Below, in pieces: positions 30,863 to 49,741 of a stretch of 64,000 nt of DNA; position 1 is the first letter of the stretch; every line of letters starts with the position of its first letter. The position numbers and the translations under genes are program-made. The notes under the pieces are model-generated. The model saw only the letters and a list, made by a program, of their open reading frames with translations. It did no database searches and had not been told where the DNA came from. The stretch is from NCBI GenBank assembly GCA_019057475.1, contig DXJO01000010.1, forward strand, positions 288,001 through 352,000, written 5' to 3'. Origin of the DNA: Candidatus Thorarchaeota archaeon (lineage in GTDB: Archaea > Asgardarchaeota > Thorarchaeia > Thorarchaeales > Thorarchaeaceae).

Positions 30863-32092
30863 TTACAGCCCGCTTACGGCGATGCTTCGAAGGTAGCCCT
30901 TGCCAATCTTCAGGACCATTGGCAGGAAATCAGTGAGTAGTCCCATGTAGTCCCCAATGCCTGCGTGCCCTTGGATTAGTGAGTTGAGGGTTCCCGCGTC
31001 GAGCTGACTGAGTACAATCTCCGCTGCTTCAATTGGATCGTTGAACATCGCATACTTGCTTATCGCCCACATACCTTCGCCAGTGTTTTTGATGTTCGAA
31101 GCCAGCTTTGTTTTCCTGTACTCTTTTTCGTATTGGCTGATGCTCTTTGCTGAGAAGTCGTTCTCATCAACTATTCTCTTTGCGTGCTTTGCTAGCAGAG
31201 TTCCTGCATGGAAGCAGGTTGTCACCCCGCCTCCGACGATTGAAGAAACCTGTCCAGCAGCATTACCGCAAAGAGCGACGCCTGCATCAGTGAATTTCGG
31301 GATTATCCCTGCGCAAGGAACAACTCCCGCATTCACCGCAACTATCTTTGCGTTTTTTGTTTCGGGGTGACTATCCTTGTATTTCTTGAGCATGCTCTGC
31401 ATGGGCATTAATGCATCCCAGTTTTCCTTTGATGAGGGGACACGACCAATGCCGAGGTTGATCTCTGTTTCGCTCCTTGGGTAGAGCCACAGGTAGCCAA
31501 GGCCCACGTCTCGCCCGACGAAGAAGTATGCAACATTTGGGTCAATGTTTTTACAATTTTCGAGCTTCCAGCGGACACCGTAACTGAGTAACCATTTCGG
31601 ATGGGTGAAGCCAGCTGTTTTGAAGACCCTGCTGAAGGAGCCATCGGCACCTACGGTGAGACCTGCTCGCTCCTCTTGGTCGCCATTGTATCTGAGACCA
31701 ACAATCTGATTCCCCTCCTTGATAACAGAGTCAACGCGAGAACGATATCTGAATTCAGCCCCGTTTCCTTCTGCACGGTCCCTCATCAGTTCTTGGCATT
31801 TGTCTTCGTCAAGAAGGTAAGAGTTGCCAAGGAGGCCTCCTCCGACTCTGATATTGGCTCCTGTATCCAAGCTCTCTCCAACGATTTCGGAGTACTTGTT
31901 GCCTACAAACTCGGAGTCTGGCTTCACACCCAAGAATCGCAATGCGTTATCTGTTACAAGTTCTCCCATCAGAGAATCCGTGACAGCGTTCCTCCTCTCC
32001 AAAACGAGGGTCTTAACACCGTATCCTGACGCCCTGTTTGCTGTCATTAGGCCGGCAGGTCCAGTGCCTGCGATTATGAGATCGAACGTCAT
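30863..32092 (-). CDS. Geranylgeranyl reductase family FAD oxidoreductase (DGGGPL reductase-like)
   Basis: IAGTGPAG, VGADG, GYLWLYP (YxWxFP), GNAAGQVSSIVGGG. Confidence 0.85.
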   Translation of the reverse strand: MTFDLIIAGTGPAGLMTANRASGYGVKTLVLERRNAVTDSLMGELVTDNALRFLGVKPDSEFVGNKYSEIVGESLDTGANIRVGGGLLGNSYLLDEDKCQELMRDRAEGNGAEFRYRSRVDSVIKEGNQIVGLRYNGDQEERAGLTVGADGSFSRVFKTAGFTHPKWLLSYGVRWKLENCKNIDPNVAYFFVGRDVGLGYLWLYPRSETEINLGIGRVPSSKENWDALMPMQSMLKKYKDSHPETKNAKIVAVNAGVVPCAGIIPKFTDAGVALCGNAAGQVSSIVGGGVTTCFHAGTLLAKHAKRIVDENDFSAKSISQYEKEYRKTKLASNIKNTGEGMWAISKYAMFNDPIEAAEIVLSQLDAGTLNSLIQGHAGIGDYMGLLTDFLPMVLKIGKGYLRSIAVSGL

Positions 32093-32248
32093 TGTATCAA
32101 CTCCTGCTGAGTGAGCTCTAGCGATTGGGTGCTGACCGGTTGGATTACTCTATATCTGTTTCCCATATGACAATGATTTCTCCCCTTATGTCGCATGATT
32201 TAATATGAGGTGCTGTATGGCCCTGAAGCACTCCAAGAAGTGTTCTTT

Positions 32249-33088
32249 ATGAAGGCCAGAATCCTCGCTTACGGCGCTTACATGATTCTATCGATTCTCA
32301 TCAGTCTGATAGTTGCAGCTGTCCCGGCTATCTTCCTCTTCGCTTGGGCTTTCTGGAATATCGACTCGATACTCAACGGACTTGGCTGGCCTTTCATTAA
32401 TATTCAGAGCGCCTTTCAAGGAACGTTCAACGCGAGCTTCCCAACAATCGTCTACACTCGGTTCTGGGGCATTATCTTCTTTATTCCCGTCGGTTTATTC
32501 TGCTATGCATTATTCTTGGGCATTCTCATAGGCATGTTCAAGCTATCCCGCAGAGGCATTCCCCGTTTGGAAGACGGATATTACAAACAAGAAACCGAAG
32601 ACTGGCTTCTGTATGAATTCGCTCAAGTCTATTACATCCTCATCCCCTACTTCGCTGGATTCTTCTCAATCTTCCTTGACACTTCGCCAAGGCATATGCT
32701 GTTCGGAGCGAAGATAGGAAGAAACACTATCATTGGCAACGGTCGCATATTCAATCCCGAGAGGACTGTAATTGGAGAGAACTGCTTCTTTGGCTACGAT
32801 GCCATTCTGAGCGGACACGTCTACGAGAGTGGCTGTCTGTACCTGAAGACAGTGAAGCTAGGCAACAATGTGACGGTCGGTTCGAACGCTGTCATTCTTG
32901 CAGGTGCGGACATTGGGGACAATGTACTCATCGCGGCCACATCCGTGGTTCCCAAGGATAAAGTCGTTCCACCCAATACGATATGGGTCCGCGGAAAGGC
33001 GCTTCCAAGGAAGCCAGTTCCGTGTGAAGAAGCAGAAGCGTATGCAATCGGTAGCCCAACTGCGGGAGCCGTCACCGGCGAAGACTAG
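32249..33088 (+). CDS. Membrane-bound left-handed beta-helix acyltransferase-like protein (single Pls/NRPS-terminal-type module)
   Basis: TM helices, then GYY...W, LFGAKIG, IGENCFFG..AILSGHVYESG.LYLKTVKLG hexapeptide repeats and VPPNTIW. Confidence 0.7.
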   Translation: MKARILAYGAYMILSILISLIVAAVPAIFLFAWAFWNIDSILNGLGWPFINIQSAFQGTFNASFPTIVYTRFWGIIFFIPVGLFCYALFLGILIGMFKLSRRGIPRLEDGYYKQETEDWLLYEFAQVYYILIPYFAGFFSIFLDTSPRHMLFGAKIGRNTIIGNGRIFNPERTVIGENCFFGYDAILSGHVYESGCLYLKTVKLGNNVTVGSNAVILAGADIGDNVLIAATSVVPKDKVVPPNTIWVRGKALPRKPVPCEEAEAYAIGSPTAGAVTGED

Positions 33089-33179
33089 GCTCTTGGGATT
33101 GCTCTTAGACTGATGGTCCCGTTTTACGATTCCCTATTAAGGATGAGTTCTTAACGTCGACAGTGAATGAACTCTTGAG

Positions 33180-34619
33180 ATGTCGGGAGTCAAGCCAACA
33201 TACACTCCGCGTGGATATCAGACCTATATCCTCGACAGGATCAGCGACTTGCAGGGTACGAATCTTCTTCTCGAACTCGATTGCGGTCTTGGCAAGCGGT
33301 TCATAACCCACCAGCTTGTGGCAGAGCGATTTCCCGATACGAAATTCATCATCGTAGTTCATTCCTCTTCGTCACTGGCTGAAACGGTAGACTACCTCAG
33401 GAGCGAGTACGGCGGGCTCGAAGACGACCTAGGTGAGCTATCATCCAGAGTTCCGTCAGGCCAAAGGTCACTGGTGCTGAGAGAAAAGAGGGTAATTGTT
33501 GCAACCCCGCAGGTACTGGCAGGCATTGCACGAAAGAACCTGAGCCTTCTGGAGCCATTTGAAGCAATTCTAATTAACGAGGTCGACACTCTCATTAGAA
33601 GAACTAGCACGAGAACCGCACTCGTGTTTCCATGGAATGAGCTTCTAACGTTCCTCGGCGAGAAATGGCTGATTGGAATGAGCGGGACTCTCAGAGACGA
33701 CCATGCTGTCTTCACCGAGGAGCAGCTGGAGATCCGTGATGAGCTAGTAACGCTGAAGGAATACATTCCGAACTCAGAAGTCATAACAATGGAGGATCTG
33801 TACGATACTGACGTCAAAGAACATCTTGACCCCACATTCCTGTCTATTGCAGAGGTGAATGATCCCAAAATAAGATCAATCTCAATCGTGCTTGACGAGC
33901 TTGTACGCGATACGCGCATTGAGATTATGAACGAGCTCGCCGAGAGCGACAATCTTGACATCATTGCAGGCGACGCAAGGAGAGTGCATCTAATGTTGGA
34001 GCGTCTTCCAATTGATGATGAACTCAAGGGACGATACTCTGGGTTGCTCCTTTTACGCAAGTATGTCTATGCGATGCCTCCCAAGCAGTTCTTGCGAATG
34101 TTTCATGCGGACTATCTGAAACATTACTTCAATGTCACTCAACTCAGGCGTGCGCTTCCCACAGTTTCTGCAAAGGTCACGAGAGTACTTGAGGTCGCCG
34201 TGAAGCATCAAAAGACACTCGTCCTCACTTCCTACCTCAAGATGGTCATACAGTTGCGTGATGTACTGGAGAAGGCGGGATTGCCAGTGCTTACAATCAC
34301 TGGGGCCACTCGGAACAAGGGTGAAGTGTTGAAGGAGTTCAAGGAGAATGCTGACGTGCGCGCCTTAGTGATGTCCCCTGTTGGGGAGCGCGATCTTGAC
34401 ATCCCCCAAGCCGATGTGATGGTGGTCTGCGACACAATCAATACCAGCAAAACGATGTACCAGAAGTTCAAGAGAACAAGAGGTGGACTTGTCTTGCTTT
34501 TAGCTTACTCTGGCACATCTGAACTACGAAAGGTCAACCGGCTAATGCAGCGGATATTAAACCGATATCCATGGTCTACCGCGGTTATAGAGCCCGATGT
34601 GGGACAACTTGGAATATGA
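33180..34619 (+). CDS. SF2 (Hef/FANCM-like) helicase-fold protein with degenerate motifs
   Basis: PRGYQ Q-motif, LDCGLGKR, ATPQ, INEVD, GMSGT, VGERDLDIP, YQKFKRTRGG. Confidence 0.7.
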   Translation: MSGVKPTYTPRGYQTYILDRISDLQGTNLLLELDCGLGKRFITHQLVAERFPDTKFIIVVHSSSSLAETVDYLRSEYGGLEDDLGELSSRVPSGQRSLVLREKRVIVATPQVLAGIARKNLSLLEPFEAILINEVDTLIRRTSTRTALVFPWNELLTFLGEKWLIGMSGTLRDDHAVFTEEQLEIRDELVTLKEYIPNSEVITMEDLYDTDVKEHLDPTFLSIAEVNDPKIRSISIVLDELVRDTRIEIMNELAESDNLDIIAGDARRVHLMLERLPIDDELKGRYSGLLLLRKYVYAMPPKQFLRMFHADYLKHYFNVTQLRRALPTVSAKVTRVLEVAVKHQKTLVLTSYLKMVIQLRDVLEKAGLPVLTITGATRNKGEVLKEFKENADVRALVMSPVGERDLDIPQADVMVVCDTINTSKTMYQKFKRTRGGLVLLLAYSGTSELRKVNRLMQRILNRYPWSTAVIEPDVGQLGI

Positions 34620-34679
34620 GCTCCCGCATAATACACTATCATTATAAGACTCGTTCAAAGAAAGGGCTCGTGAGCTACC

Positions 34680-35129
34680 TTGACAGATGAGGCCTCCAAT
34701 GGCATAAGGGAGATGAACCTCAACGTTGGTGTCGACATCATCGACATAGACCGATTTAGAGGCGTCAAGCGTAAGGCGCCATTCATCGAGCGGACATATA
34801 CTCCAAGAGAGCTTGACTACTGCTATGGCTACAGCGACCCGGCCCCGCATCTAGCAACAACATTTGCAGGGAAGGAAGCTGTGGTCAAGTCGATTGGAAC
34901 GAAAACAGGCACCTCATTGAGATCCATTGAAATCCTCCGCAACGGTGATGGAGCTCCTTACGTTTGTGTGAACGGGGTTGAGAGCAACGAGATCAAGGTC
35001 AGCCTTTCGCATTCTAAGAACCATGCAGTTGCTGTTGCTGCAACAGTATCTTCACTATCCAAGTCTGGCAAAGAGTATATTCAGGATATTTTAAACAGCA
35101 ATGCACTAGAGCTGCTGCCAAACGAGTGA
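34680..35129 (+). CDS. acpS: Holo-[acyl-carrier-protein] synthase (4'-phosphopantetheinyl transferase)
   Basis: VGVDIIDIDRF, FAGKEAVVKS, GAPYV, VSLSHS. The start may be ATG at 34713. Confidence 0.9.
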   Translation: MTDEASNGIREMNLNVGVDIIDIDRFRGVKRKAPFIERTYTPRELDYCYGYSDPAPHLATTFAGKEAVVKSIGTKTGTSLRSIEILRNGDGAPYVCVNGVESNEIKVSLSHSKNHAVAVAATVSSLSKSGKEYIQDILNSNALELLPNE

Positions 35130-35135
35130 ACCGCG

Positions 35136-36968
35136 ATGAGTGGCACAGACGATCAAGTGGATGAGATTTTGAAGTCGGTGCGTGAGTCGCCAACATATCT
35201 TAGCTTCTGGAGCGCCTACAAGAGGATTCAACGCCTTTCACCTAAGCCATCGGAAAACGCAAGTCTGAGGGCTAGCATTGCGATAATTGGCTCATCCACA
35301 CTGGAACCGCTCGCCGCGTGTTTTGATGTCAAGATGCGACTGGAAGGATTCCACCCTCATACGTTCGTTGGCGGGTTCAACACCTACCACCAGGAAGCAA
35401 TGAATAAAACTTCAGAACTGTACAAAGCAGAGCCAAACATCATTGTACTTGCAGTGGATGCTTGGTCACTATTGGATCAGAAGTTCCTCTCCAATTATCC
35501 CCTGATGAGCAGCAAGAGTCGCAGTGCTGCAATAAAGGAGCTGGTGAACAGCATCACAGCAATAGCAGAGGTGCTGGAGAAGAACAGTGCAGCACTGATT
35601 CTTGTGAACAATTTCATTGTTCCCACGTTTTCTCCATTGGGCGTTGCCGACAACAAGCAGAAGCTTGGTTTCAAGAAGTTCTTCCGTCGAGCCAACCGGC
35701 TCTTGGAGGAAAAACTTGAGAGCGCTTCAAATGTCTTTGTTGTGGACCTAGATTCGGTTGCTTCCGACTTTGGCAAATCGCGTACTGTGAATTGGAACAC
35801 TTACTACAGAGGCTCTATTCCCTTCAGTGAGGAGTTCACGCCAATCGTTGCTGATGAGTACATGCGATACTTCCGTGCTCTCAAAGGTTTAACGAAGAAG
35901 TGCATCGTGCTCGATCTTGACAATACGCTCTGGGGCGGCATTATCGGTGAAGACGGCATTGAGGGAATCAAGCTTGGTCCAACTTCCCCCGGTTTAGAGT
36001 ATGTGGAGTTCCAGCGGGCATTGCTGAGCCTTTACAATAGGGGGGTCATCCTCGCCGTAAACAGCAAGAACAATTTCGACGATGCAATCAAGGTTCTACG
36101 AGAACATCCTCATCAGATTCTCAAAGAAGAGCACTTCGCGGCCCTGAGAATCAATTGGCAGAACAAAGTAGCGAACATTGCAGAACTGGCAAAGGAGATC
36201 AACATTGGTCTTGACAGTATCGTGTTCATCGATGATAATCCTGCAGAACGCGAGCAGATTAGACAGATCTATCCAGAGGTGATGGTCGTTGACCTTCCGA
36301 AGAACCCGCACCTCTACAGGGCCACACTAGAGAAGATAGACGTGTTTGATGTCCTATCACTCACCAAGGAGGACATGGCTCGTGGTGAGATGTACGTTGG
36401 TAAACGTAAGCGAGAAGAGCTGGAGCAGAGCTCCACATCCATCGAGGACTTCCTTAGAACGCTTGAACTCAAAGTGCAAGTGAAACTGACGGACGACTTT
36501 GATACACCCCGAGTAGTCCAGCTCCTCGGAAAGACAAACCAGTTTAACCTGACTACACGAAGGTACACCGATGCCGAAACCAAGAGCCTGAGGGATGCAG
36601 AGGAATCCGCAGTCTATAGCATGGCAGTTCAGGACAAGTTCGGCGATGAGGGAGTCGTTGGAGTCGCGATAGTCAGAAAGGAGAAAATGTCATGGATGGT
36701 GGATTCCTTCCTCATGAGTTGTCGAGTGATTGGGCGCTCTGTAGAAACCGCATTTCTAGCCAAGATCATTGCTGATGCCAAGACTGCCGGTGCCAAGCGC
36801 GTGATAGGAGAATACATACAAACCAAGAAGAACGCTCCCGCAGCTGATTTCTATGAACATCACGGATTCGCTAAACAGAAAGAGTCAGGTGACGGTGCAA
36901 TCTGGATGCTTGACCTCGCTCACGGTACAGTCGAAGTGCCGGACTGGATAGACCTCATTGAGGAGTGA
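35136..36968 (+). CDS. fkbH: FkbH-like HAD-IIIC glyceryl-carrier-protein synthase
   Basis: VLDLDNTLWGG, SKNN, FIDDNPAER, KTNQFNLT, DKFGDEG, FLMSCRV (catalytic Cys), plus an N-terminal extension. Confidence 0.92.
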   Translation: MSGTDDQVDEILKSVRESPTYLSFWSAYKRIQRLSPKPSENASLRASIAIIGSSTLEPLAACFDVKMRLEGFHPHTFVGGFNTYHQEAMNKTSELYKAEPNIIVLAVDAWSLLDQKFLSNYPLMSSKSRSAAIKELVNSITAIAEVLEKNSAALILVNNFIVPTFSPLGVADNKQKLGFKKFFRRANRLLEEKLESASNVFVVDLDSVASDFGKSRTVNWNTYYRGSIPFSEEFTPIVADEYMRYFRALKGLTKKCIVLDLDNTLWGGIIGEDGIEGIKLGPTSPGLEYVEFQRALLSLYNRGVILAVNSKNNFDDAIKVLREHPHQILKEEHFAALRINWQNKVANIAELAKEINIGLDSIVFIDDNPAEREQIRQIYPEVMVVDLPKNPHLYRATLEKIDVFDVLSLTKEDMARGEMYVGKRKREELEQSSTSIEDFLRTLELKVQVKLTDDFDTPRVVQLLGKTNQFNLTTRRYTDAETKSLRDAEESAVYSMAVQDKFGDEGVVGVAIVRKEKMSWMVDSFLMSCRVIGRSVETAFLAKIIADAKTAGAKRVIGEYIQTKKNAPAADFYEHHGFAKQKESGDGAIWMLDLAHGTVEVPDWIDLIEE

Positions 36969-36972
36969 CGCG

Positions 36973-37212
36973 ATGACAGACGCTGAAGATACCCTTACGG
37001 AGATAATCTCCAAGGCCCTCCTTCTAGACAAGAGTGAATTGACAGATGACCTGAAGCGAGGCGATTATGAGCCCTGGGACTCGATGGCACATCTTACTCT
37101 GATAAGCGAGATTGAAAACGAGTTTGGCATATTCTTTGAGGATGACGAAGTCGTTGACATCTGGACAGTTGCCGATATTCGAAGTCTGCTCTCAAAGAAA
37201 ATTTCCAGCTAG
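36973..37212 (+). CDS. Acyl carrier protein
   Basis: Small acidic protein with a WDSMAHLTLI phosphopantetheine-Ser motif and IENEFGI. Confidence 0.9.
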   Translation: MTDAEDTLTEIISKALLLDKSELTDDLKRGDYEPWDSMAHLTLISEIENEFGIFFEDDEVVDIWTVADIRSLLSKKISS

Positions 37213-37655
37213 TCCTTCTTCGATTCCAACCTCTGAACTGCCCTTGCGGGATTGCCTGCAACTAATGTTAATGGTGGCACATCTCTATGCACAACAGCCC
37301 CCGCTGCAACGATTGCTCCCTCTCCAACAGTTACACCAGGCAAGATGATCGCGCCACTGGCCACCCAGGCTCCCTTCTTGATGGTGATTTTCTTTGGTCC
37401 TCCATGGTAGATCTTCGCTCTCTGAAGGTATGGGCTCGAGCCGGAATGAGCCATTAGCTTTGCCCCTGGACCAATTGCAGCCCAATCCTCAATCTCGATG
37501 TACTCTGGATACTCGCTGTCAATCATGACCATATAGCCGATGAAGACGCCTTTTCCCACCTTGACACCGCACTTCCTGAGCACTGATGCACGGAACTGGT
37601 AGACGGGTGCCAACCAAGCTATAATTCTCAGTAGCCTGCCGATTGTTTTGCCCAT
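37209..37655 (-). CDS. Hexapeptide-repeat O-acyltransferase
   Basis: GVKVGKGVFIG, IILPGVTVGEGAIVAAGAVVHRDVPP..LVAGNPAR. Confidence 0.88.
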   Translation of the reverse strand: MGKTIGRLLRIIAWLAPVYQFRASVLRKCGVKVGKGVFIGYMVMIDSEYPEYIEIEDWAAIGPGAKLMAHSGSSPYLQRAKIYHGGPKKITIKKGAWVASGAIILPGVTVGEGAIVAAGAVVHRDVPPLTLVAGNPARAVQRLESKKD

Positions 37656-37656
37656 G

Positions 37657-38589
37657 TCAATCTACACTTCCTTTTCGGTTGGCTGAGTCCATCCTTCGCC
37701 ACAGATATCTCCTTAGGTAGTCTGCGAAAACCCAGTTATCAATGTCACCTGTAAGCAGTAAACAGAAGGTTGCATCCCCTTTCCACTTGCCATGCTTCTT
37801 CCAATACGTTACGGCATCTGCCGGGTTTGGACACCAACCTCCCAGTTCCGCAGTGTATCCCATCACAGTTCTCAGAGCACCTATGAACTTAGACTGCCCA
37901 ATCCTAATTGGATGCAGATCGAACATAACAACGCCTCCGCTGGTGGAAGCATTCTTGATCTCACGCTTGAGCTGAGTAGCTACAGCTTCAGGTCCCATTC
38001 CATGACCATCAATCATTTTGTCGTCGCTCCAGATATTGAGCGGGATGTATGTGGTGCTTGACATCTTACCGTTCAGTTCCACATTGAAGAAGTGGTCTTT
38101 CTCTCGGTGTTCTGGCCTGTATCCGAATCCGCCGTCCCAAATGAAATCGAGGCGTTCAATCAATTCAGGCATATCATCAGTGTAGTTGTCATAGGGTGCC
38201 CTAAATCCCCTGATTTCGATACCCATCTTCCTGTAGACTTGGAGGCTCAGCATCAGGTCCTTTTTCCGTTCACTTGACGTCAATGTCGGATAACGGAGAT
38301 GGTTGTAGCCATGACTTGCTACTTCGTGGCCTTCAGCGACTATCTGTCGTACCAACTCTGGGCGCATTTTGGCAACTGCAGCCACGGTTGGAAAGCAGAA
38401 GTGCCCGTTGTGGTCGTCAAGCGCATCGAAGATGTTGCTGAGAATGTCGTCGAAGGGCACACGATGAAGACCATACATGCGGAGGAACTGCCTTGGAGCT
38501 CGTGTTCCCCATCGCTTTCTAAGCTGGCTGATGTACCGCATGCTCAAGTCAGGGACCTCAGATGCATGGTTCAGCTGGTTCGCTTTCAT
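37657..38589 (-). CDS. Polysaccharide deacetylase (NodB-fold) family protein
   Basis: GHEVASHGYNH, GFRAPY, FDLHP. Confidence 0.8.
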   Translation of the reverse strand: MKANQLNHASEVPDLSMRYISQLRKRWGTRAPRQFLRMYGLHRVPFDDILSNIFDALDDHNGHFCFPTVAAVAKMRPELVRQIVAEGHEVASHGYNHLRYPTLTSSERKKDLMLSLQVYRKMGIEIRGFRAPYDNYTDDMPELIERLDFIWDGGFGYRPEHREKDHFFNVELNGKMSSTTYIPLNIWSDDKMIDGHGMGPEAVATQLKREIKNASTSGGVVMFDLHPIRIGQSKFIGALRTVMGYTAELGGWCPNPADAVTYWKKHGKWKGDATFCLLLTGDIDNWVFADYLRRYLWRRMDSANRKGSVD

Positions 38590-38609: not shown

Positions 38610-39530
38610 CTACGATCCCGTAACAAATGTTCTGCCAATCAAGTCAAAGAGCGGCTTTACGAACTGAGGTTCATACTTCGCTTGGACGTGTCTGCACAAC
38701 TTAACAAACTCCTCGAGTCGTGATTCAGCATCTTCTACGGTGCCCAGTATCTTTCTTGATCTCTTTACGATGTTTCGCACTCTGCCTTTGGCTTTCTTAT
38801 GCTCACCCAGGATACCCGCTGAGTCCTGTTCAATCCGTTGAATCTGACTCTTTAAGCGAATGTCTGCGATGTCATCACTGCCCAGCGATTTCACCATGTC
38901 CATCAGAACATCAAGAAGACCATTGTGAAGTCCTACCATTAGTGCCTCTATCTCATAGGCTGTGAATTTTACATCGTTTCCATCGTAGTTCAGCATCCAC
39001 TTCAGGTCACTGCTTCTTGTGACGCCCAGCTTTTTCTTCCCAATCACAATCGGTTCCAAGAAGAACCTGCTATCGACGCTATTCTGAATAGATGTCCTGA
39101 TTAATGCCGCTTCAGGCAAGGTTAGTGACAAAGATTTCCCGCCATTCTTAACAACCAAACAGACACCCGCCACAGGGGCTATTTTCTGAACATATTTCGA
39201 GGGCGGAGTAACCTCGACAGGAGGCAGGTTGTTTAGCATATCAGCAAGCTCACGCACCTCGCTCTCAGTGAGGAAGTAGGTCTGACCATCACCAGAAACT
39301 GTGATCGTGCCATCTTCGTCTCGCTCAAAGTCTATGCGATTTCCTCCTCCCACATCTGTAGTCTTCTTGTAGGTCTGCTTGTAATTTCGTGCAGTCTGTG
39401 CGAGCTTCTCAAGCGCAGCCGCAATCATATGAGCCTCTCCGTAACCGAGAGTGATCTCAGCACGTCCTTCTGTGCCTTTGCCTATTCCTACTGCTCCATC
39501 TTTGCGAATCTTTACATACAACGGGACCAA
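38610..39530 (-). CDS. Hypothetical protein with four internal beta-strand/helix repeats
   Basis: Repeats end in ITLGYGEAHMIA, FLTESEVRELA, LTLPEAALIR and FTAYEIEALM. Confidence 0.7.
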   Translation of the reverse strand: MVPLYVKIRKDGAVGIGKGTEGRAEITLGYGEAHMIAAALEKLAQTARNYKQTYKKTTDVGGGNRIDFERDEDGTITVSGDGQTYFLTESEVRELADMLNNLPPVEVTPPSKYVQKIAPVAGVCLVVKNGGKSLSLTLPEAALIRTSIQNSVDSRFFLEPIVIGKKKLGVTRSSDLKWMLNYDGNDVKFTAYEIEALMVGLHNGLLDVLMDMVKSLGSDDIADIRLKSQIQRIEQDSAGILGEHKKAKGRVRNIVKRSRKILGTVEDAESRLEEFVKLCRHVQAKYEPQFVKPLFDLIGRTFVTGS

Positions 39531-39631: not shown

Positions 39632-41212
39632 TTGCGCAGGTCAATTAGTTTCTCCATCGCGTTTGTTCTCTTTCTGCTTCCCCTATTGCTGGGTCTTGTG
39701 GAAACGACAACTCCGAATCCGGCTGTATCTCTTGAGGGGTCATTCACTGAGGCAGCTCCCGCTCATTTCGTCAGGGGCCCCACTGTGAACTTGGTGACAA
39801 ACAGCTCGGCTCTGATCTTCTGGAGAACAGATGTACCCATGAACTCCACAGTAGACTACGGGTTGGAGGAATCGAACCCCAACCTAACTGTAAGTAACAG
39901 CACCGTTGTTGGGGACCACCGAATAACACTGACCGGTCTCGCTATGGGGTCCAAATACTACTATCAAGTGACATCTAATGGCACTGCCAGTGACGAGTAC
40001 CATTTCAGGACGGCTCCTGCGGATGGAGCTGAGTTCAAGATGATTGTGTTTGGCGATAACCGACCAGACACAGACACGGCACCAGTACAACCTCAGGAGT
40101 ATAGTGATCTTGTTGACTTGGTAATCGCAGAGGAACCACACATCGTGATAATGACCGGCGATTACGTGCTGATAGTCACTGAGAGCCACAGCTACAATCT
40201 TGACGCTTGGGAGCGTTTCACAAACATCACTGACCGACTTGGTCACTATGCACCAATCTACGGTGTGCTTGGCAATCATGATACAAGCGCCTACACCGGT
40301 ACTTTGCGTCTAGAGTACTTCTTTGATGCCTTTGAGATGTATAGCGAACCCTCACCCTACTCCTCCTTTGACTATGCTGGTGTCCATTTCACACTTCTCA
40401 ACTCCGAGGAGCAATACAACAATGGGCGCATAACTGGTACGCAGTACGACTGGCTGGTTGACGATTTGACCAATACATCGAGGAGCATGAAATTCGTATT
40501 TGCTCACCAGCCGCTCTATCCGTTGCAGCACATAAACAGTGCATTAGATAGGAATATGACCGAGATGATCCGACTTCAGCAGCTCTTTGAGGACATGAAT
40601 GTCACTCTCTTCGCCGCTGGACATGACCACCTCTTCAATAGATTGACGGTCAATGGTGTTGTTCACATAATTGCAGGCGGTGGCGGTGCACCGCTGTATC
40701 ACACTCCGTGGGGTGGTGCCTTCTTCCATTACCTCAAGGTTGACGTCAGTTCAGGCCAAGTGGACTTCACTGCCATTGATCTCTCGAGCGTTACAAGAGA
40801 ACAGTACCAGCTGCCCTACGATGGACCCATCGAGATTGAAGCTAGATTCCTCGCCAACAACACCTTGCAGAGGAACGGAACTCTGCCTATATTCTACTTC
40901 AGTGAGATTCCAGATGAGGTGCTCTACTCTTGGGATGGTGGCTCAAACTCTACAACTCTTACTGGGTTCCCAGACGAGCCTGATGCACACACTCTAGACG
41001 TGTATGCTAACGATTCTGAAGGTTCATGGAGCCATGAGCGATTCGTGTTCAACACGTACAATCCCGATTGGCCAACTCCTACAACGTCGACCAGCACTAC
41101 CGACACCGAAAGCCCTCCCCCTCCAATGGACGTCGTGTTAATCTTGGGCATCGTGGGCGTGGTTTCAGCCGTTGTAGTGGTTATTATCCTCATGCGGTTT
41201 AAACGGAAATAG
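39632..41212 (+). CDS. Secreted purple-acid-phosphatase-like metallophosphoesterase with FN3 domain and C-terminal TM
   Basis: FGDNR, TGDYV, GNHD, AHQP, AGHDH, Thr/Pro linker, TM + RFKRK. Confidence 0.88.
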   Translation: MRRSISFSIAFVLFLLPLLLGLVETTTPNPAVSLEGSFTEAAPAHFVRGPTVNLVTNSSALIFWRTDVPMNSTVDYGLEESNPNLTVSNSTVVGDHRITLTGLAMGSKYYYQVTSNGTASDEYHFRTAPADGAEFKMIVFGDNRPDTDTAPVQPQEYSDLVDLVIAEEPHIVIMTGDYVLIVTESHSYNLDAWERFTNITDRLGHYAPIYGVLGNHDTSAYTGTLRLEYFFDAFEMYSEPSPYSSFDYAGVHFTLLNSEEQYNNGRITGTQYDWLVDDLTNTSRSMKFVFAHQPLYPLQHINSALDRNMTEMIRLQQLFEDMNVTLFAAGHDHLFNRLTVNGVVHIIAGGGGAPLYHTPWGGAFFHYLKVDVSSGQVDFTAIDLSSVTREQYQLPYDGPIEIEARFLANNTLQRNGTLPIFYFSEIPDEVLYSWDGGSNSTTLTGFPDEPDAHTLDVYANDSEGSWSHERFVFNTYNPDWPTPTTSTSTTDTESPPPPMDVVLILGIVGVVSAVVVVIILMRFKRK

Positions 41213-43799: not shown

Positions 43800-44597
43800 C
43801 TATCTTGGGGCGGGTATCCCCAAGTTCCACTCATCGAGGCTGTAGCGGCTCTGATATAAAACCTCTGCAGTGTTTACCTCCGTCTGGGTCAGGTTTCCGG
43901 ATTCCACGTTCTCACCTGAGAATGTGGCTACGCTCCTAACAATGGCTGCCCTAATTTCAACATCCGAAGGTCTTGAACTAACCTCCGCAGAGATGTTTGT
44001 CACTACGTCCCTCTTACTCAGCTTGCATCTGATTCTCGTTCGGTTTCTCAAGTATTTCGTTTGGCCAGTTGGTGCATCTAAGGACCTCTCGAGGGTGTTG
44101 ATGTTTGCGTCAATCAAGAGTGTGCCATGAAGAAAGGATACTCCCCGCTTTATCCATCCTGCGGTTCCTGTGACCTTTTTCTTTCCGATTCTAAGGCATG
44201 AACTTTCCGCATCGTATGCAACGGGTATTCCTATCTCACGGAGTCCGTTTGCGATGCTGCCAACAAAGCCTTGGTACAACTTCTTCAAACTCCTGGGAAC
44301 ATACGGCTTGCGCTGGTCCGCACAAATGGTGAAGTTCAGGTTACCACTGCCATGATATACTGCTCCTCCTCCGGTGAAACGCCTCGCAATTCGAATGCCC
44401 TCTTTCTGGCAGTACTCTAAATCCACTTCCTTGTGCACGCACTGAAATCTGCCAATAACTACGGATTTGTCTGATTGCCATAGGCGGAGCGTGTTGGTTT
44501 TCTCGACCGAATCCGCATTTACTCTGGCAAGCGACTCCTCTATCGATAGGTTGCGATAGATGTCCAGTTCTTCGTCTTCTATCACTCGCCAGACCAT
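43800..44597 (-). CDS. lplA: Lipoate-protein ligase A family protein
   Basis: IGRFQ, RRFTGGGAVYH, KKVTGTA, HGTLL. Lies near the E2 gene. Confidence 0.9.
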   Translation of the reverse strand: MVWRVIEDEELDIYRNLSIEESLARVNADSVEKTNTLRLWQSDKSVVIGRFQCVHKEVDLEYCQKEGIRIARRFTGGGAVYHGSGNLNFTICADQRKPYVPRSLKKLYQGFVGSIANGLREIGIPVAYDAESSCLRIGKKKVTGTAGWIKRGVSFLHGTLLIDANINTLERSLDAPTGQTKYLRNRTRIRCKLSKRDVVTNISAEVSSRPSDVEIRAAIVRSVATFSGENVESGNLTQTEVNTAEVLYQSRYSLDEWNLGIPAPR

Positions 44598-44685
44598 GAT
44601 ACGACCAACATCACTTCTTAGTCAGAGCAGAACGAAATCTGGAAGCCTGCATCGAACTTAACACTTTGGCACAACGAGAATGAAT

Positions 44686-44811
44686 GCCGGTGGTGGAGGT
44701 CACCACCGGCTGGTGAGCCTCGGAGGAGAGAAACCTATCGGAGGCTCGGAACAGATGTCGTTTTCGAGGCGTGACGCAGAGAGGTAGTCTGCGCCGGAAG
44801 TTGAACCCTCG
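44686..44811 (-). ncRNA. Candidate structured RNA with three hairpins carrying pyrimidine-rich CCUC loops
   Basis: Stems at 44686-44710, 44715-44747 and 44773-44795; TTTAAA box at about 44820-44825. Confidence 0.35.
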
Positions 44812-44883
44812 CTGAATGATTTAAAGTCCGATAATTCCTTACACCTGCAGGTTTCCCAACTCGCGCCTGAAGGATAAGTTCAA

Positions 44884-45120
44884 GTGAAAACGCTTCAGCT
44901 TGAAATCGACACGAAACCACTTAGGCACGCAAAAACGGGGATTGAATGTGAGAACTGCGGGGGGACCGACTGGGTCCTCACAATCTATGAGATGCGAGTA
45001 ATGGGTAGAACAATCACGTATTCTGCCTTGAAGTGTAAGGGTTTCGGGATGACTTACCCTCTACAAGAATTGGGCAAGAACGTGAATAAAGAAACTGTTG
45101 TTTCAACGCTTCGTCAGTGA
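44884..45120 (+). CDS. Small zinc-ribbon-like protein
   Basis: CENC...CKGF; the fourth Cys is replaced by Phe. Confidence 0.55.
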   Translation: MKTLQLEIDTKPLRHAKTGIECENCGGTDWVLTIYEMRVMGRTITYSALKCKGFGMTYPLQELGKNVNKETVVSTLRQ

Positions 45121-45136
45121 CTGCCTGCTCGACGAA

Positions 45137-45460
45137 CTAACTGAACGGGGTCGCACACTCATGGCAGTAGCTTGACCCGGGCCGTGTCTTGGCACCACAG
45201 CTTGGACAACGTCTGGGCACTCGAGATGCTCCCCTTCGGGGGCTCAGAACGAATCTACCACTACTCCTGATGTTCCGCAAGCCGATTTTGTCAGCATAGA
45301 ACTCTGTGTAGCCACATTCCGAACATGTGAACGTCTCCAATGTGGCGGTGGATAATCCTGGAAGATCAACTCTGATGTGATGGCCATCTCCCCCATGCAC
45401 CCTATGTGGTCCCGCAATTCGTTTACCTCCGCACTTTGGGCATGTCCTTGACTTAATCAT
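45137..45460 (-). CDS. Double zinc-ribbon protein
   Basis: CPKC, CSECGYTEFY, CPSC, CHEC. Confidence 0.8.
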   Translation of the reverse strand: MIKSRTCPKCGGKRIAGPHRVHGGDGHHIRVDLPGLSTATLETFTCSECGYTEFYADKIGLRNIRSSGRFVLSPRRGASRVPRRCPSCGAKTRPGSSYCHECATPFS

Positions 45461-45563
45461 CTTGACACCTCATATTCACTCCAAGCTCAGGAATTATCTA
45501 CTTTCCCTCGCCCTCCATGCTGTATGTGCGCATGAAAGGTCATAACCCTTTTGATTGCTTTGT

Positions 45564-46784
45564 CTAGATTTTCATGAAGAAGGGACTCTCAAGTACATCC
45601 TTAAGGGCGGCAAGGAACTGACCTGCAGGCACACCATCTAGCACTCTATGGTCCACGGCACAGCTGGCCATCATCATGCTCCTTACAGTAATTATATCAT
45701 CTATCACTACTGGCTTCTTCTTGACCTGTCCAAGCGCCAAGATTGCGCTCTCGGGTGGATTGATTACCGGGATAAATAGGTCAACTCCGAATGACCCCAG
45801 GTTCGAAACAGTGAATGTGCTTTCAGCCAGGTCTTCAGGCTCCAATGCACTCTCTTTTACCTTCTTTCCAAGAGCCCTTATTTCCTGAGCAATCTGTGTG
45901 AATGACTTCTTGTTGGCCGCTTTCACTGTTGGGACAATAAGTCCATCTTCAGTAGCCATAGCAACTCCGATGTTTATGTCAGAGAACATACGAAATTCAT
46001 TTCCAACAAGCGTGGCGTTGAATCTAGGGAACTTCTCAAGGGTGTCTGCAACTGCCTTTACAATGATATCGTTGAAAGAAACCCTGAATCCGAGCTTCTT
46101 CTGAACCTTCTTGTTTATCTCTTCTCTGAGAGCAACGGCCTCGCTCATGTCAATCTCAGTGATCATGGTGATGTGAGGGTGCTGCCAGCTCTGAGTCATT
46201 CTGCGAGCTATGGTTCTTCTCAGGGGCGTCAGTGTTTTTGTCCCGCGCACCTTTCTTGAATCTTTTATCGTCATTGCAGCTGGTTGTGCTACGATGTCAT
46301 TCTCTACGATTCTCCCTCCAGGTCCAGTTCCTATGATAGGGGACAAGTCTACTCCAAGTTCCTTGGCTTTTTTCTTTGCTCTGGGCGAAGCCTTGATTCT
46401 TCCGCTAGGCAATCTTGTTTCTGTAGCTTGAACTTCTTGTGGACCCGCCGTTTTAATCGGGGTTGCCTTTGCGGGCACTGGCCATGCGGGAGCAACTAGC
46501 GCGGGTTCATTGAGTTTCTTGGGTCTGGTGTCAGGTATCTTCTCGCCCTTCTTACCGATGAATGCGATGGGTTCGCTGATGGGGATCTCGTCATTCACGT
46601 CACAGAGTATCTTCAGTATGACGCCATCGGCGGGAGCCTCCAATTCAAACTCATTCTTCTCCCCAAATATCTCGACCACTAGGTCACCTTTCTTGACTGC
46701 ATCACCCTCTTTCTTGAGCCACTTCAGAATGACTCCATACTCCATGGCGACGCTCATGCGTTGCATGATCATAGTAGTGACCAT
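45564..46784 (-). CDS. pdhC: 2-oxoacid/acetoin dehydrogenase E2 (dihydrolipoamide acyltransferase)
   Basis: Lipoyl domain (EIFGEK), ASPRAKK...GTGPGGRI, FTVSNLG, DHRVLDG. Start set at MVTTM. Confidence 0.88.
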   Translation of the reverse strand: MVTTMIMQRMSVAMEYGVILKWLKKEGDAVKKGDLVVEIFGEKNEFELEAPADGVILKILCDVNDEIPISEPIAFIGKKGEKIPDTRPKKLNEPALVAPAWPVPAKATPIKTAGPQEVQATETRLPSGRIKASPRAKKKAKELGVDLSPIIGTGPGGRIVENDIVAQPAAMTIKDSRKVRGTKTLTPLRRTIARRMTQSWQHPHITMITEIDMSEAVALREEINKKVQKKLGFRVSFNDIIVKAVADTLEKFPRFNATLVGNEFRMFSDINIGVAMATEDGLIVPTVKAANKKSFTQIAQEIRALGKKVKESALEPEDLAESTFTVSNLGSFGVDLFIPVINPPESAILALGQVKKKPVVIDDIITVRSMMMASCAVDHRVLDGVPAGQFLAALKDVLESPFFMKI

Positions 46785-46794
46785 AGGTTTCACC

Positions 46795-47769
46795 TTACAC
46801 GATTTCGCGTACTGCGCTAATGATTCTATCCTTGTCTGGAATGAATGCCTGTTCAAGAGGGGGACTGAATGGAACCGGAGTATCAGGCGCGTTGACTCTC
46901 TTGATGGGCGCATCAAGCCAATCGAATGCTTCCTCTTGAACAATAGCAGCAATCTCAGCAGTTGTTGCTCCGGTTTTCGTTTCCTCTGTCACGAGAACAA
47001 GGCGTCCAGTCTTCTTCACTGAGTCAATGAGGGTCCTCTTGTCCAGAGGTACCAATGTGCGCGGATCAATAACTTCCGTACTGATTCCTTGCTTGGCTAG
47101 CTCGTCTGCGGCCTCAATGGCCTTGTGCACCATGAGGAATGTCCCCCATATCGTGACATCGTCGCCCTCTCTGTGAACTCTTGCCTTGCCGAACGGGATT
47201 AGATATTCTTCGTCAGGTACTTCCTCCTTTCGGTCATAGACAAGCTTATGCTCGAAGAACATTACTGGATCAGGGTCTCGGATGGCAGTCTTGATGAGGC
47301 CTTTAGCATCATAGGCAAAGGATGGTACAGCGATCTTGAGCCCAGGTGTGTGCATGAACCAAGCTTCAAGGCTCTGTGAATGATGAGAGGCGAGATTCTT
47401 TCCTCCTCCAAACACACTTCGCAGAACAAGCGGGACTGAAGTCTGTCCTCCGAACATATACCTCAGCTTCGCGGCCTGGTTGCAGACTTGGTCCATGGCC
47501 AGTGTGATGAGGTCTCCGAACATTATCTCCGCAACTGGAATCATCCCGGTGATGGCCGCTCCCAGCGCAGCTCCTGCAATTGCGTTCTCAGATATCGGAG
47601 TGTCTCGGACTCTGTCATCCCCAAATTCCTCCGCAAGGCCTTTCGTGACCTTGAAAGCCCCGCCCCAGTTGCGACCAATGTCCTCTCCCATAATGAAGAC
47701 TCTCTCATCGCGCAACATCTCCTCACGAAGGCCTTCCTTGAGGGCATCTCTGTAGGTCTTCTCAGGCAT
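46795..47769 (-). CDS. pdhB: 2-oxoacid/acetoin dehydrogenase E1 beta
   Basis: GEDIG, DTPISE, HSQS, FFEHK. Confidence 0.9.
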   Translation of the reverse strand: MPEKTYRDALKEGLREEMLRDERVFIMGEDIGRNWGGAFKVTKGLAEEFGDDRVRDTPISENAIAGAALGAAITGMIPVAEIMFGDLITLAMDQVCNQAAKLRYMFGGQTSVPLVLRSVFGGGKNLASHHSQSLEAWFMHTPGLKIAVPSFAYDAKGLIKTAIRDPDPVMFFEHKLVYDRKEEVPDEEYLIPFGKARVHREGDDVTIWGTFLMVHKAIEAADELAKQGISTEVIDPRTLVPLDKRTLIDSVKKTGRLVLVTEETKTGATTAEIAAIVQEEAFDWLDAPIKRVNAPDTPVPFSPPLEQAFIPDKDRIISAVREIV

Positions 47770-48738
47770 CTAGGCCACCCCCGCGAAGACATCATCCAGT
47801 ACTTCCTGTGGTTCTGGGTACTCGGATTTCACTGCGAAATCAGCAGCATTGTCGACTTCCTTCTGCAGCTTCCTTCGAATGTCCTTGGCTTCTTTCTTTG
47901 TCAGCGCCTTCTTCTCCAAGGCAATGTTCTGAATGGTTTCAACGGCATCCTTGCTGAGCCAGAAATCGACCTCTTCCTTGGGCCTGTACTTGGCCGGGTC
48001 GAATCTTGAATGTCCTCGCATTCGATAAGTTTGACATTCTATCAGGCTGGGTCCGCCGCCCTTTCTGGCTCTTTTCACAGCCTCTATGGTGGCTTCATAG
48101 ACCTCTACCGCGTTGTTTCCATCTACCACACAGCTTGGAATGCAGTATGCCTCAGCTCTCTGTGCAATGCTCTGACTGGGACAGGTTAACGCAATTGGCG
48201 TACCCATCGCATAGAAGTTGTTCTCGACAATCCAAATCACAGGCAGTTTCCAGATTGCTGACAAGTTGAGGGACTCACCGAAAGTTCCGTTGTTTGAAGC
48301 ACCATCGCCAAAGAAACAAGCGACAACCTCCTTGGTTGCTCTCATTTGGCATGAGAGCGCAGCACCTGCCGCGATGGGCAGACCAGATGCCACAACACCT
48401 GTGGCCCCGAGCACTCCAGCTTTAAACTCCGTGATGTGCATTGAGCCGCCCTTGCCCTTGCATGAGCCAGTTCGCTTGCCAAGTAGTTCAGCCAGTGCCG
48501 CGTTCATGTCTGCACCCTTAGCAACGACATGACCATGACCCCTGTGTGTGCTCTGAACCCAGTCGCTCTTCTTCAGTGCCGCTGTCACTCCAGCCGCCAC
48601 CGCTTCTTGTCCTAGGTATAGATGCAGCGTTCCTGGAACAAGATTCTCTCCGAAGAGGTCCCAGACCTTTTCTTCAAAGAGGCGAACCTTCAACGTTCGC
48701 GTGTACAAATCGACGAGCTTCTTCTTTGTGACTGCCAT
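47770..48738 (-). CDS. pdhA: 2-oxoacid/acetoin dehydrogenase E1 alpha
   Basis: HLYLGQEA, STHRGHGH, GKGGSMH, GDGA..NG TPP motif, YRMRGHS. Start set at MAVTKK. Confidence 0.9.
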   Translation of the reverse strand: MAVTKKKLVDLYTRTLKVRLFEEKVWDLFGENLVPGTLHLYLGQEAVAAGVTAALKKSDWVQSTHRGHGHVVAKGADMNAALAELLGKRTGSCKGKGGSMHITEFKAGVLGATGVVASGLPIAAGAALSCQMRATKEVVACFFGDGASNNGTFGESLNLSAIWKLPVIWIVENNFYAMGTPIALTCPSQSIAQRAEAYCIPSCVVDGNNAVEVYEATIEAVKRARKGGGPSLIECQTYRMRGHSRFDPAKYRPKEEVDFWLSKDAVETIQNIALEKKALTKKEAKDIRRKLQKEVDNAADFAVKSEYPEPQEVLDDVFAGVA

Positions 48739-48952
48739 TATATAATTCGCCTGCCCGACAGAGAGCTTCTGGGCGCCTCCGAGAGTCACACCAGATAAAG
48801 GCTTCGAAGTAGATACCATGAAGGGCTTCCCGCGGAACCCATTGCAACCATGAAACTCATATCGCGGTGCGCGCGAACCAAACACAGACAGCAAGAACGC
48901 GTTGTGGTCGATAATGGATGCCATTGCAGCGTGAAATGAGGAATGGAACTCC

Positions 48953-49741
48953 ATGAATGATAGGCGTGACGCCCATTCGGAGCTGAGAGGGGGTTATGAA
49001 GCTGCAGCGGAATTCTACGATCTCTTCGCAAAGAATGACGACATCCCATTCTACCTTGACTATGCTCGCAGACAGGGGTCTCCGATTCTGGACCTCGCTG
49101 CGGGTGCGGGGCGTGTTTCTTTTGCTCTCGCACGTGAGGGCTTTGAGGTCGTGGCATTGGAGAGGTCTGAAGATATGCTTCGAGTGGCAAGGCAGCGTCA
49201 CAATGACCTGACAGAGGTCATCGCGAAGCAAGTGACCATTATTGAAGGGGATTTTACAGACTTCACGCTGAACCAGCAATTCTCTCTTATCATCATTCCT
49301 GCATCCTTTGGGCATGCGTTGACGAGGGATGAACAGCTCTCCACTCTATCGTGCGTGAGGTGCCATCTTCGGGATAACGGCTTATTCATACTTGATTTGT
49401 TTCCAGGTGGTGTACAGCCAGAGCGTGCGTTTTTCGAGGATGTTCCTGTAGAGCTACCCGATGGGCGTATCGTCAGGCGTGTTGGAGAGATGCGCGTCGA
49501 CCCAGCGCGTCAGATTCTAGAACTGAAACTTCACTTCATCATAAGCGACCCGCAAATCGAGCCCAAAAAGGAGGAATGCTTTGAGCTTCTATCTGGAGCA
49601 GCACTGATCCACAACCGAGAGGCTAACATGTTGATGAGAATGAGCGATTTAGAAATAGTGGAGGAGTTCGGTGACTTCGATAGGCGCCCCTTCAGCTCCG
49701 ATTGTGGAAGGAGAATCTTGGTTCTTAGGAAGAGTTCTTGA
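48953..49741 (+). CDS. Class I SAM-dependent methyltransferase
   Basis: ILDLAAGAGR motif I, IEGDF, HLRDNGLFILD. Confidence 0.88.
   Translation: MNDRRDAHSELRGGYEAAAEFYDLFAKNDDIPFYLDYARRQGSPILDLAAGAGRVSFALAREGFEVVALERSEDMLRVARQRHNDLTEVIAKQVTIIEGDFTDFTLNQQFSLIIIPASFGHALTRDEQLSTLSCVRCHLRDNGLFILDLFPGGVQPERAFFEDVPVELPDGRIVRRVGEMRVDPARQILELKLHFIISDPQIEPKKEECFELLSGAALIHNREANMLMRMSDLEIVEEFGDFDRRPFSSDCGRRILVLRKSS

Follow-up and report, generated by a model that had tools for sequence, protein, structure and literature searches.

A five-gene acyl carrier protein cassette in Thorarchaeota and other archaea, a candidate route to N-glyceroyl amino sugars

An N-glyceroyl group is known on pseudaminic acid, and most archaea are not known to possess acyl carrier proteins (ACPs) or the chemistry that depends on them. 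Characterised FkbH enzymes convert 1,3-bisphosphoglycerate into glyceryl-S-ACP (PMC7489565), an FkbH-domain gene, cj1302, is found in the flagellar glycosylation locus of Campylobacter (PMC7099621), and N-glyceroyl amino sugars exist in nature, their genetic basis having been called a major challenge in 2017 (PMC5378307). Here we describe a cassette of five genes within a stretch of 64,000 nucleotides (nt) of DNA from a Candidatus Thorarchaeota archaeon, the whole of which is referred to below as the window. The genes encode an AcpS-type 4'-phosphopantetheinyl transferase (PPTase), an FkbH-like loader, a stand-alone ACP, a small left-handed beta-helix (LbH) acyltransferase of 148 amino acids (LbH148) and a NodB-type deacetylase, and they come and go together as a single cassette. 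Judging from sequence comparisons, we give roughly even chances to the proposal that this is a self-sufficient acyl-remodelling cassette, which would replace the N-acetyl group of a hexosamine with a glyceryl group and so yield an N-glyceroyl amino sugar. No published description of the cassette was found in the literature on FkbH or ACP in archaea, Thorarchaeota or Bathyarchaeota.

Gene identities in the window were assigned from a listing of its open reading frames (ORFs) and from Pfam and NCBIfam profile scans. The cassette is laid out as follows.

34680/34713-35129, + strand: AcpS-type 4'-phosphopantetheinyl transferase (PF01648, TIGR00556)
35136-36968, + strand: FkbH-like loader, 610 amino acids (TIGR01686)
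36973-37212, + strand: stand-alone ACP, 79 amino acids (W-D-S motif, weak PF00550 match)
37209-37655, - strand: LbH148, small left-handed beta-helix acyltransferase, 148 amino acids (PF00132)
37657-38589, - strand: NodB/CE4-fold deacetylase, 310 amino acids (PF01522)

The acpS, fkbH and acp genes are co-oriented, with gaps of 6 nt between the first two and 4 nt between the second and third; both coordinates and profile scores bear out this arrangement, which had been noted in an earlier reading of the stretch made without database searches (the sequence-only reading). The genes for LbH148 and NodB converge on this trio from the opposite strand, so that acp and LbH148 are convergent and overlap by 4 nt, and 1 nt lies between the end of NodB and the start of LbH148. 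The true start of AcpS is likely the ATG at 34713, the TTG at 34680 giving only the longest ORF, and ortholog alignments begin at residue 13-14 of that ORF. A TATA-like ATTATAAG lies upstream of acpS, and no direct or inverted repeats of note, such as might mark the boundaries of a mobile element, flank the cassette.

The five genes are inherited together. FkbH was found in 27 of 61 Thorarchaeota-family genomes, as was an AcpS-type PPTase; orthologs of LbH148 (at least 62% identity) occur in 27 of the same 61 genomes, all of them cassette-bearing, and orthologs of NodB in 30, three of these being fragments only. The genomes with FkbH, AcpS, LbH148 and NodB are essentially identical sets. The few mismatches can be put down to artefacts or remnants: FkbH runs off the end of a contig in G072 and stands at a contig start in G059, an assembly that is 74% complete, G002 and G003 are low-completeness assemblies with NodB alone on short contigs, and G041 holds a deletion scar, to which we return below.

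What distinguishes the cassette from its surroundings is the fate of the genes on either side, which are listed here.

30863-32092, - strand: geranylgeranyl reductase (GGR)-family flavoprotein (Pfam/NCBIfam)
32249-33088, + strand: TM-LbH, 279 amino acids, hexapeptide (LbH) domain preceded by about three N-terminal transmembrane helices
33180-34619, + strand: SF2 helicase-like protein, 479 amino acids (ResIII and Helicase_C)
38610-39530, - strand: hyp306, 306 amino acids, without a family match
39632-41212, + strand: membrane-anchored purple-acid-phosphatase-like protein

The two LbH genes and the NodB-fold gene that the sequence-only reading had placed around acpS-fkbH-acp are indeed present, although the helicase-like gene between TM-LbH and acpS had been overlooked. 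The hyp306 stop lies 20 nt from the NodB start, and NodB-LbH148 may be read through from hyp306. In the 12 family loci first fetched, ten (from at least nine genera) are collinear at 55-75% amino-acid identity, from TrmB-like genes through GGR, TM-LbH, the helicase-like gene, AcpS, FkbH, ACP, LbH148, NodB and hyp306 and beyond, and the remaining two carry a different type of FkbH. As the flanks are collinear as well, synteny alone cannot tell which of these genes work together. Loci without the cassette were found by way of the GGR ortholog, which is present in 58 of the 61 genomes irrespective of the cassette, and the adjoining DNA was examined in genomes that lack FkbH. All 15 usable loci of this kind keep GGR, TM-LbH with the helicase-like gene, and hyp306 through to orf119 in the same place. 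From 14 of them AcpS, FkbH, ACP, LbH148 and NodB are gone as one block. The fifteenth, in G041, carries a deletion scar (L065:5167-5689): an N-terminal AcpS fragment (residues 7-60) runs straight into a NodB fragment (residues 19-144) that contains a stop codon, and FkbH, ACP and LbH148 are gone; here the cassette was therefore lost secondarily. Nor did the FkbH-less genomes yield any AcpS-type PPTase, there being just two weak matches, both to longer, Sfp-sized ORFs. It follows that TM-LbH, the helicase-like protein, hyp306 and the GGR-like protein cannot depend on holo-ACP. They are unrelated neighbours of the cassette.

Beyond the Thorarchaeota the cassette recurs without these neighbours. 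FkbH scores above its cut-off in 62 of 379 Asgard genomes: 38 of 79 in the Thorarchaeota family, 11 of 22 and 5 of 10 in two others, and none of 129 in the largest family, while a fourth family carries a second FkbH type. In ten of ten loci from the two other, Hod/Heimdall-type families the five genes stand together in differing orders and contexts, as NodB-AcpS-FkbH-ACP with LbH148 convergent or divergent, and two public contigs (L031, L036) hold the same five genes together in another arrangement. TM-LbH, the helicase-like gene, GGR and hyp306 are found neither in those ten loci nor on those two contigs, and in no locus inspected outside Thorarchaeota does TM-LbH or GGR stand beside the cassette. 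When species-representative genomes were scanned with an alignment of NodB as seed, the 75 loci that came back were without exception archaeal, belonging to Thorarchaeota, Hod-, Heimdall- and Hermodarchaeota, Bathyarchaeia and Nitrososphaerales. In 52 of them the five genes fall inside 3.4-4.4 kb; nearly all the others are cut at contig ends, and in one Heimdall locus NodB stands by itself. The acp gene lies directly downstream of fkbH in every cassette locus compared, in Thorarchaeota and in the other archaea. A gene of the VOC/Glyoxalase_4 type accompanies the cassette in Hod/Heimdall-type Asgards (L055:10925-11332, L060:5044-5460, L036:7667-8083) and is also present in one bacterial polysaccharide locus (L037:7603-7959); the Thorarchaeota cassette is without it.

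In quick FastTree phylogenies of FkbH, whose deeper branches we do not rely upon, the Thorarchaeota, Hod/Heimdall and Bathyarchaeia copies form a single clade (local support 85-97) into which no further sequences from the database fall, and the Nitrososphaerales loaders group elsewhere in the tree. LbH148 from Thorarchaeota is 66-76% identical to the Bathyarchaeia copies as against 52-65% to those of Hod/Heimdall, a pattern of sequence similarity that hints at exchange between phyla. The expectation that an acyltransferase would prove to be linked to fkbH-acp in relatives thus holds for LbH148, which together with NodB stays linked even in distant archaea, and fails for TM-LbH.

These distributions bear directly on the pathway suggested by the sequence-only reading, according to which TM-LbH would act as a Pls-type module that transfers or polymerises glycerate from glyceryl-S-ACP onto a membrane acceptor, with the GGR-family gene marking a link to lipids. 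TM-LbH does have about three N-terminal transmembrane helices ahead of its hexapeptide domain, it shares a strand with acpS, from which it lies 1.6 kb upstream, and is next to the GGR-family gene, and it gives a weak match to the Pls/PosA model TIGR02353. That match, however, amounts to 50.1 bits against a cut-off of 423.1 and covers only residues 164-260, the generic hexapeptide part. The nearest Atlas clusters of TM-LbH are plain acetyltransferases, and the 120 relatives listed of 139 are all stand-alone proteins of 245-312 amino acids, nearly every one of them a Thorarchaeota or other Asgard protein, in a search that did not extend to longer, fused forms. Moreover, TM-LbH is absent from two cassette-bearing genomes. 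We rejected a Pls-type role on profile score, architecture and Atlas neighbours and, above all, on the retention of TM-LbH in genomes that have no carrier protein; the presence/absence pattern largely refutes it, and we regard it as very improbable. The lipid link fares no better. The GGR gene misses the cut-offs of both NF041160 (129.5 bits against 780) and TIGR02032 (127.5 against 158.8), and the window copy is the weakest and most divergent of nine GGR-family paralogs in the genome, the other eight scoring 165-230 bits; given this, and an ortholog that persists with or without the cassette, we rejected a lipid link through GGR. Nothing in the analysis supports polymerisation of glycerate or a connection to lipids.

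The source assembly, which is 96% complete, was also searched for carrier-protein genes. Genome-wide profile searches returned one FkbH, one PP-binding match (the ACP) and one PPTase (the AcpS). Every FkbH-ACP pair that has been characterised belongs to a polyketide, non-ribosomal peptide or tetronate pathway, and glyceryl-ACP might accordingly feed a synthase of that sort encoded elsewhere in the genome, a possibility that the sequence-only reading had allowed for as one that would count against its proposal. No condensation domain was found in the genome, however, and its three weak ketosynthase matches are thiolases, one of them beside HMG-CoA synthase. With a single carrier protein besides, a distant consumer of this kind is therefore very unlikely, so much so that we rejected it and assign it a very small probability. 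Ketosynthase, adenylation and glycosyltransferase domains are likewise missing from the 40 window proteins scanned with Pfam (a set that does not include every ORF of the window), as the sequence-only reading had said.

The first three proteins of the cassette retain the residues that their families require, invariance being judged here and below across 15 archaeal orthologs or cassettes. AcpS scores 58.3 bits with PF01648 (cut-off 25) and 62.1 bits with TIGR00556 (cut-off 45.35), falls just below the cut-off of the TIGR00516 equivalog (58.5 against 59.8), and has invariant D19, E66 and K70, an Asp, Glu and Lys of the Mg/CoA-binding type. FkbH reaches 334 bits with TIGR01686 in the window scan and 336 in the genome search, far above the cut-off of 146.65, and has FkbH_N and HAD-IIIC domains (PF21211, 54 bits; TIGR01681, 82 bits). 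It is a long-form protein, in which FkbH_N is followed by the HAD-IIIC phosphatase domain and then, at the C-terminus, by a Cys acyl-transfer domain, and its HAD-motif residues D260, D262, T264, S310, K344, D366 and D367 are invariant, as is C529; its sole relative in the PDB is BF1531 (3SLR). The ACP is a small acidic protein of about 80 residues encoded next to the loader, with an Asp-Ser pair in an invariant W35-D36-S37, and Ser37 is the predicted site of phosphopantetheine attachment. By analogy with characterised short-form relatives, FkbH here most likely uses 1,3-bisphosphoglycerate to make glyceryl-S-ACP, and in this respect the self-contained carrier-protein pathway envisaged by the sequence-only reading has stood up well.

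The remaining two proteins would act on the acceptor. NodB scores 55.3 bits with PF01522 (cut-off 23.1), and H93, H97, R130, P132, D189, D190, D224, H226 and the run T280-G-D-I-D-N285 are invariant. In alignment the canonical first motif of the CE4 family stands at its C-terminus (LTGDIDN, residues 279-285), which identifies the family, at the level of sequence, as a circular permutant with a complete CE4 catalytic set. An AF2 structural model (pLDDT 85, pTM 0.81) agrees with the CE4 assignment: Foldseek places the CE4 deacetylases 3RXZ, the PuuE type and HP0310 on top (E = 1e-11), with ArnD and the NDST1 deacetylase matched more weakly, and the modelled fold thus confirms NodB as CE4. LbH148 scores 46 bits with PF00132 and has an invariant H70. 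Among the matches listed (the best 25 NCBIfam families and 32 PDB sequences) are the MAT, GAT, WcaF and sugar N-acetyltransferase types, the best PDB relatives being maltose and galactoside O-acetyltransferases (MAT and GAT) and sugar N-acetyltransferases; LpxA and LpxD models are not among them. Neither NodB nor LbH148 has a predicted signal peptide or transmembrane segment, and both are therefore cytoplasmic.

Where the FkbH loader is found in bacteria points to glycans as the likely setting. Its nearest non-archaeal relatives, at 39-44% identity, lie in polysaccharide loci (L035, L037, L032), where they adjoin an ACP gene and a gene for a hexapeptide transferase or an N-acyltransferase. One such locus reads GT4-GT2-FkbH-ACP-hexapeptide transferase-GT4, a second Wzy-MBOAT...GT2-hexapeptide transferase-VOC-FkbH-ACP...GT4-WecG, and a third DegT...GT4-Wzx-ACP-N-acyltransferase-AcpS-FkbH. 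In the archaea the cassette adjoins AglB/STT3 in a Hod/Heimdall-type family (f18, seen in L055) and on the public contig L031. From these polysaccharide-locus relatives, the adjacency to AglB and the cytoplasmic location of the CE4 enzyme we infer a scheme of deacetylation followed by reacylation, akin to that of NodB/NodA/NodF or LpxC/LpxD. According to this scheme, AcpS would convert the only ACP of the genome to its holo form. FkbH would take a C3 unit from 1,3-bisphosphoglycerate, its HAD domain removing the phosphate, and would hold the unit on Cys529 before passing it to the ACP to give glyceryl-S-ACP. NodB would strip the N-acetyl group from a hexosamine in the cytoplasm and expose the amine, candidate substrates being a nucleotide sugar or a lipid-linked sugar of surface-glycan or N-glycan synthesis. 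Finally, LbH148 would move the glyceryl group from the ACP to the freed amine, yielding an N-glyceroyl amino sugar. What the sequences establish is the identity of the genes, the conservation of their catalytic residues and the inheritance of all five as a unit; which acyl group is transferred, to which acceptor and in what order of steps belongs to the proposed part of the account.

Several observations weigh against replacement of an N-acetyl by a glyceryl group. No characterised example of a long-form FkbH with FkbH_N was found in the literature. The ACP is divergent, its 19.4 bits with PF00550 not reaching the cut-off of 20.8 and its best NCBIfam ACP model, NF002148, giving 30.6 bits against a cut-off of 71. 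LbH148 is nearest to CoA-dependent maltose and galactoside O-acetyltransferases rather than to the ACP-dependent LpxA and LpxD; because of this, both its use of the ACP as donor, for which gene linkage is the sole ground, and its preference for N- over O-acylation are put forward conditionally. The sugar acceptor is itself only a candidate. The cassettes of Thorarchaeota, Bathyarchaeia (L106) and Nitrososphaerales (L122) stand amid unrelated housekeeping genes with no glycosyltransferase nearby, the neighbours in the latter two lineages being uninformative as to the acceptor, and AglB lies on another contig in the source genome. In some lineages, too, the VOC gene may further modify the C3 unit, for example by epimerising it while tethered.

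Some of these points are equally those that speak for O-acylation, in which a genuine cassette would have LbH148 transfer the ACP-borne C3 unit to the hydroxyl of a sugar or of a small metabolite such as a solute, a cofactor or the head group of a lipid, the CE4 enzyme serving as an esterase or acting on some other amide. The O-acetyltransferase relatives of LbH148 and its conserved, catalytic-type His70 would fit, as would the isolation of the cassette among housekeeping genes in three archaeal lineages and the presence of PuuE, an allantoinase type rather than a sugar deacetylase, among the nearest structural neighbours of the CE4 model. CE4 enzymes, however, mostly de-N-acetylate hexosamines, and NodB keeps the full set of metal-binding and catalytic motifs; the bacterial loader relatives lie in polysaccharide loci with amino-sugar routes (DegT, Antibiotic_NAT), and AglB adjoins the cassette in Hod/Heimdall-type genomes. 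On balance we consider O-acylation rather unlikely.

It is also conceivable that the chemistry takes place on the carrier protein itself, LbH148 acetylating the hydroxyl of glyceryl-S-ACP from acetyl-CoA in a tetronate-like manner, the CE4 enzyme processing the ester and an unlinked enzyme using the modified C3 acyl-ACP. Such acetylation followed by elimination is known on glycerate-derived units, for homologues of Agg4/Agg5 (PMC7489565), LbH148 resembles CoA-dependent O-acetyltransferases, and the VOC gene that some cassettes possess hints that the tethered unit undergoes additional reactions. The cassette would then be without an off-loading gene, however, in a genome with no ketosynthase, FabH-like tetronate synthase or condensation domain, and a pair of enzymes that acetylates and then deacetylates would be futile; we judge this route improbable.

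Returning to the N-glyceroyl proposal, a bolder form of it can be entertained, namely that the cassette constitutes the enzymology of N-glyceroyl amino sugars, is the sole ACP-dependent pathway in Asgard archaea, Bathyarchaeia and Nitrososphaerales, where it would exchange the N-acyl group on one of the core sugars of the AglB-dependent N-glycan, and has passed from one archaeal phylum to another with its five genes together. This is possible, although we regard it with more doubt than belief. Whatever its product, this is a small ACP-based pathway that brings along its own activating enzyme, has been kept together in three major archaeal lineages and is cleanly lost in close relatives. Should it indeed place glycerate on amino sugars, it would explain the making of N-glyceroyl sugars, which in bacteria was unexplained in 2017, and would suggest that Asgard archaea vary in a trait of their surface glycans. 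All five of its proteins are small and soluble, so that the set lends itself to direct tests. The analysis also corrects a tempting over-reading of the locus, as the lipid link and the Pls-like polymerase are both unsupported.

Some further observations concern genes outside the cassette. TM-LbH is tandemly duplicated in some relatives (L048, L049), and in Thorarchaeota the helicase-like gene is always paired with it, cassette or not. The helicase-like protein has an atypical motif I (GLGKR) and motif II (NEVD), both invariant in 20 orthologs, so that other residues stand where Mg is normally bound. A family search with hyp306 gave no match in Pfam, NCBIfam, PDB or Atlas; its AF2 model (pLDDT 86) consists of four beta4-alpha repeats and a C-terminal helical bundle, and its fold matches to RnlA, PUR-alpha, MRP1/2 and sliding clamps (TM at most 0.21) are too weak for a function to be assigned, though they suggest that it may bind nucleic acid. 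A second type of FkbH, about 30% identical, occurs in other Thorarchaeota (G010, G069) and in another Asgard family, and belongs to a different carrier-protein pathway. In G010 (L026:9330-17146) it clusters with an unknown protein of 316 amino acids, an alpha/beta hydrolase, an Sfp-type PPTase, a further unknown protein of 356 amino acids, a 325-amino-acid LbH protein and a LuxC-type acyl reductase; in G028 (L025:9335-12147) the only genes seen next to it are those for the unknown protein and the alpha/beta hydrolase. Elsewhere in the window, at 43800-48954, a gene that by its sequence resembles lipoate-protein ligase lies near an operon for the E1-alpha, E1-beta and E2 subunits of a 2-oxoacid dehydrogenase, and there are several 2-oxoacid:ferredoxin oxidoreductase genes.

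Set beside known systems, the cassette shares its front end with the loaders of methoxymalonyl-ACP, tetronate and non-ribosomal peptide synthetase (NRPS) pathways (FK520 FkbH, OzmB, Mad7/Mad8 and Mad14/Mad12), which it resembles in the TIGR01686 domain, the HAD DxDxT motif, the conserved Cys, a stand-alone ACP directly downstream and 1,3-bisphosphoglycerate as predicted substrate. It differs in having no polyketide synthase, NRPS or FabH-like partner and in the extra N-terminal FkbH_N; it is paired instead with a CE4 enzyme and an LbH protein, and it supplies the only ACP chemistry of the genome. The likeness of TM-LbH to the C-terminal domain of Pls/PosA is confined to transmembrane helices followed by a soluble hexapeptide-repeat domain. 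TM-LbH is a single module rather than three, is not fused to adenylation or thiolation domains and is kept in genomes without a carrier protein or PPTase, and therefore cannot depend on a carrier-bound donor.

Closer parallels are found among the bacterial surface-glycan loci in which FkbH, ACP and an acyltransferase occur together (the C. jejuni cj1302 region; L032, L035 and L037). These have the same long-form loader with a small ACP and an acyltransferase adjacent, and their product is likely a glyceroyl-type decoration, like the N-glyceroyl of pseudaminic acid. The bacterial copies, however, are embedded in glycosyltransferase/flippase loci, mostly without a CE4 gene, whereas the archaeal cassette stands alone with its own AcpS and NodB. 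For the proposed logic of deacetylating a hexosamine and then placing a new group on the amine, the precedents are the Nod factor pathway (NodB, NodA and the ACP NodF), lipid A synthesis (LpxC, LpxD) and NDST, the new acyl group coming from an ACP in the first two, as proposed here. The CE4 fold is common to NodB and the NDST deacetylase, and the LbH fold is that of LpxD. The acyl group of the archaeal cassette would nevertheless be a C3 hydroxy-acid loaded by FkbH in place of a fatty acid, and LbH148 falls outside the LpxD and NodA families. The copy in the window is one member of a widespread archaeal module, a variant of a known logic of carrier-protein-dependent acylation.

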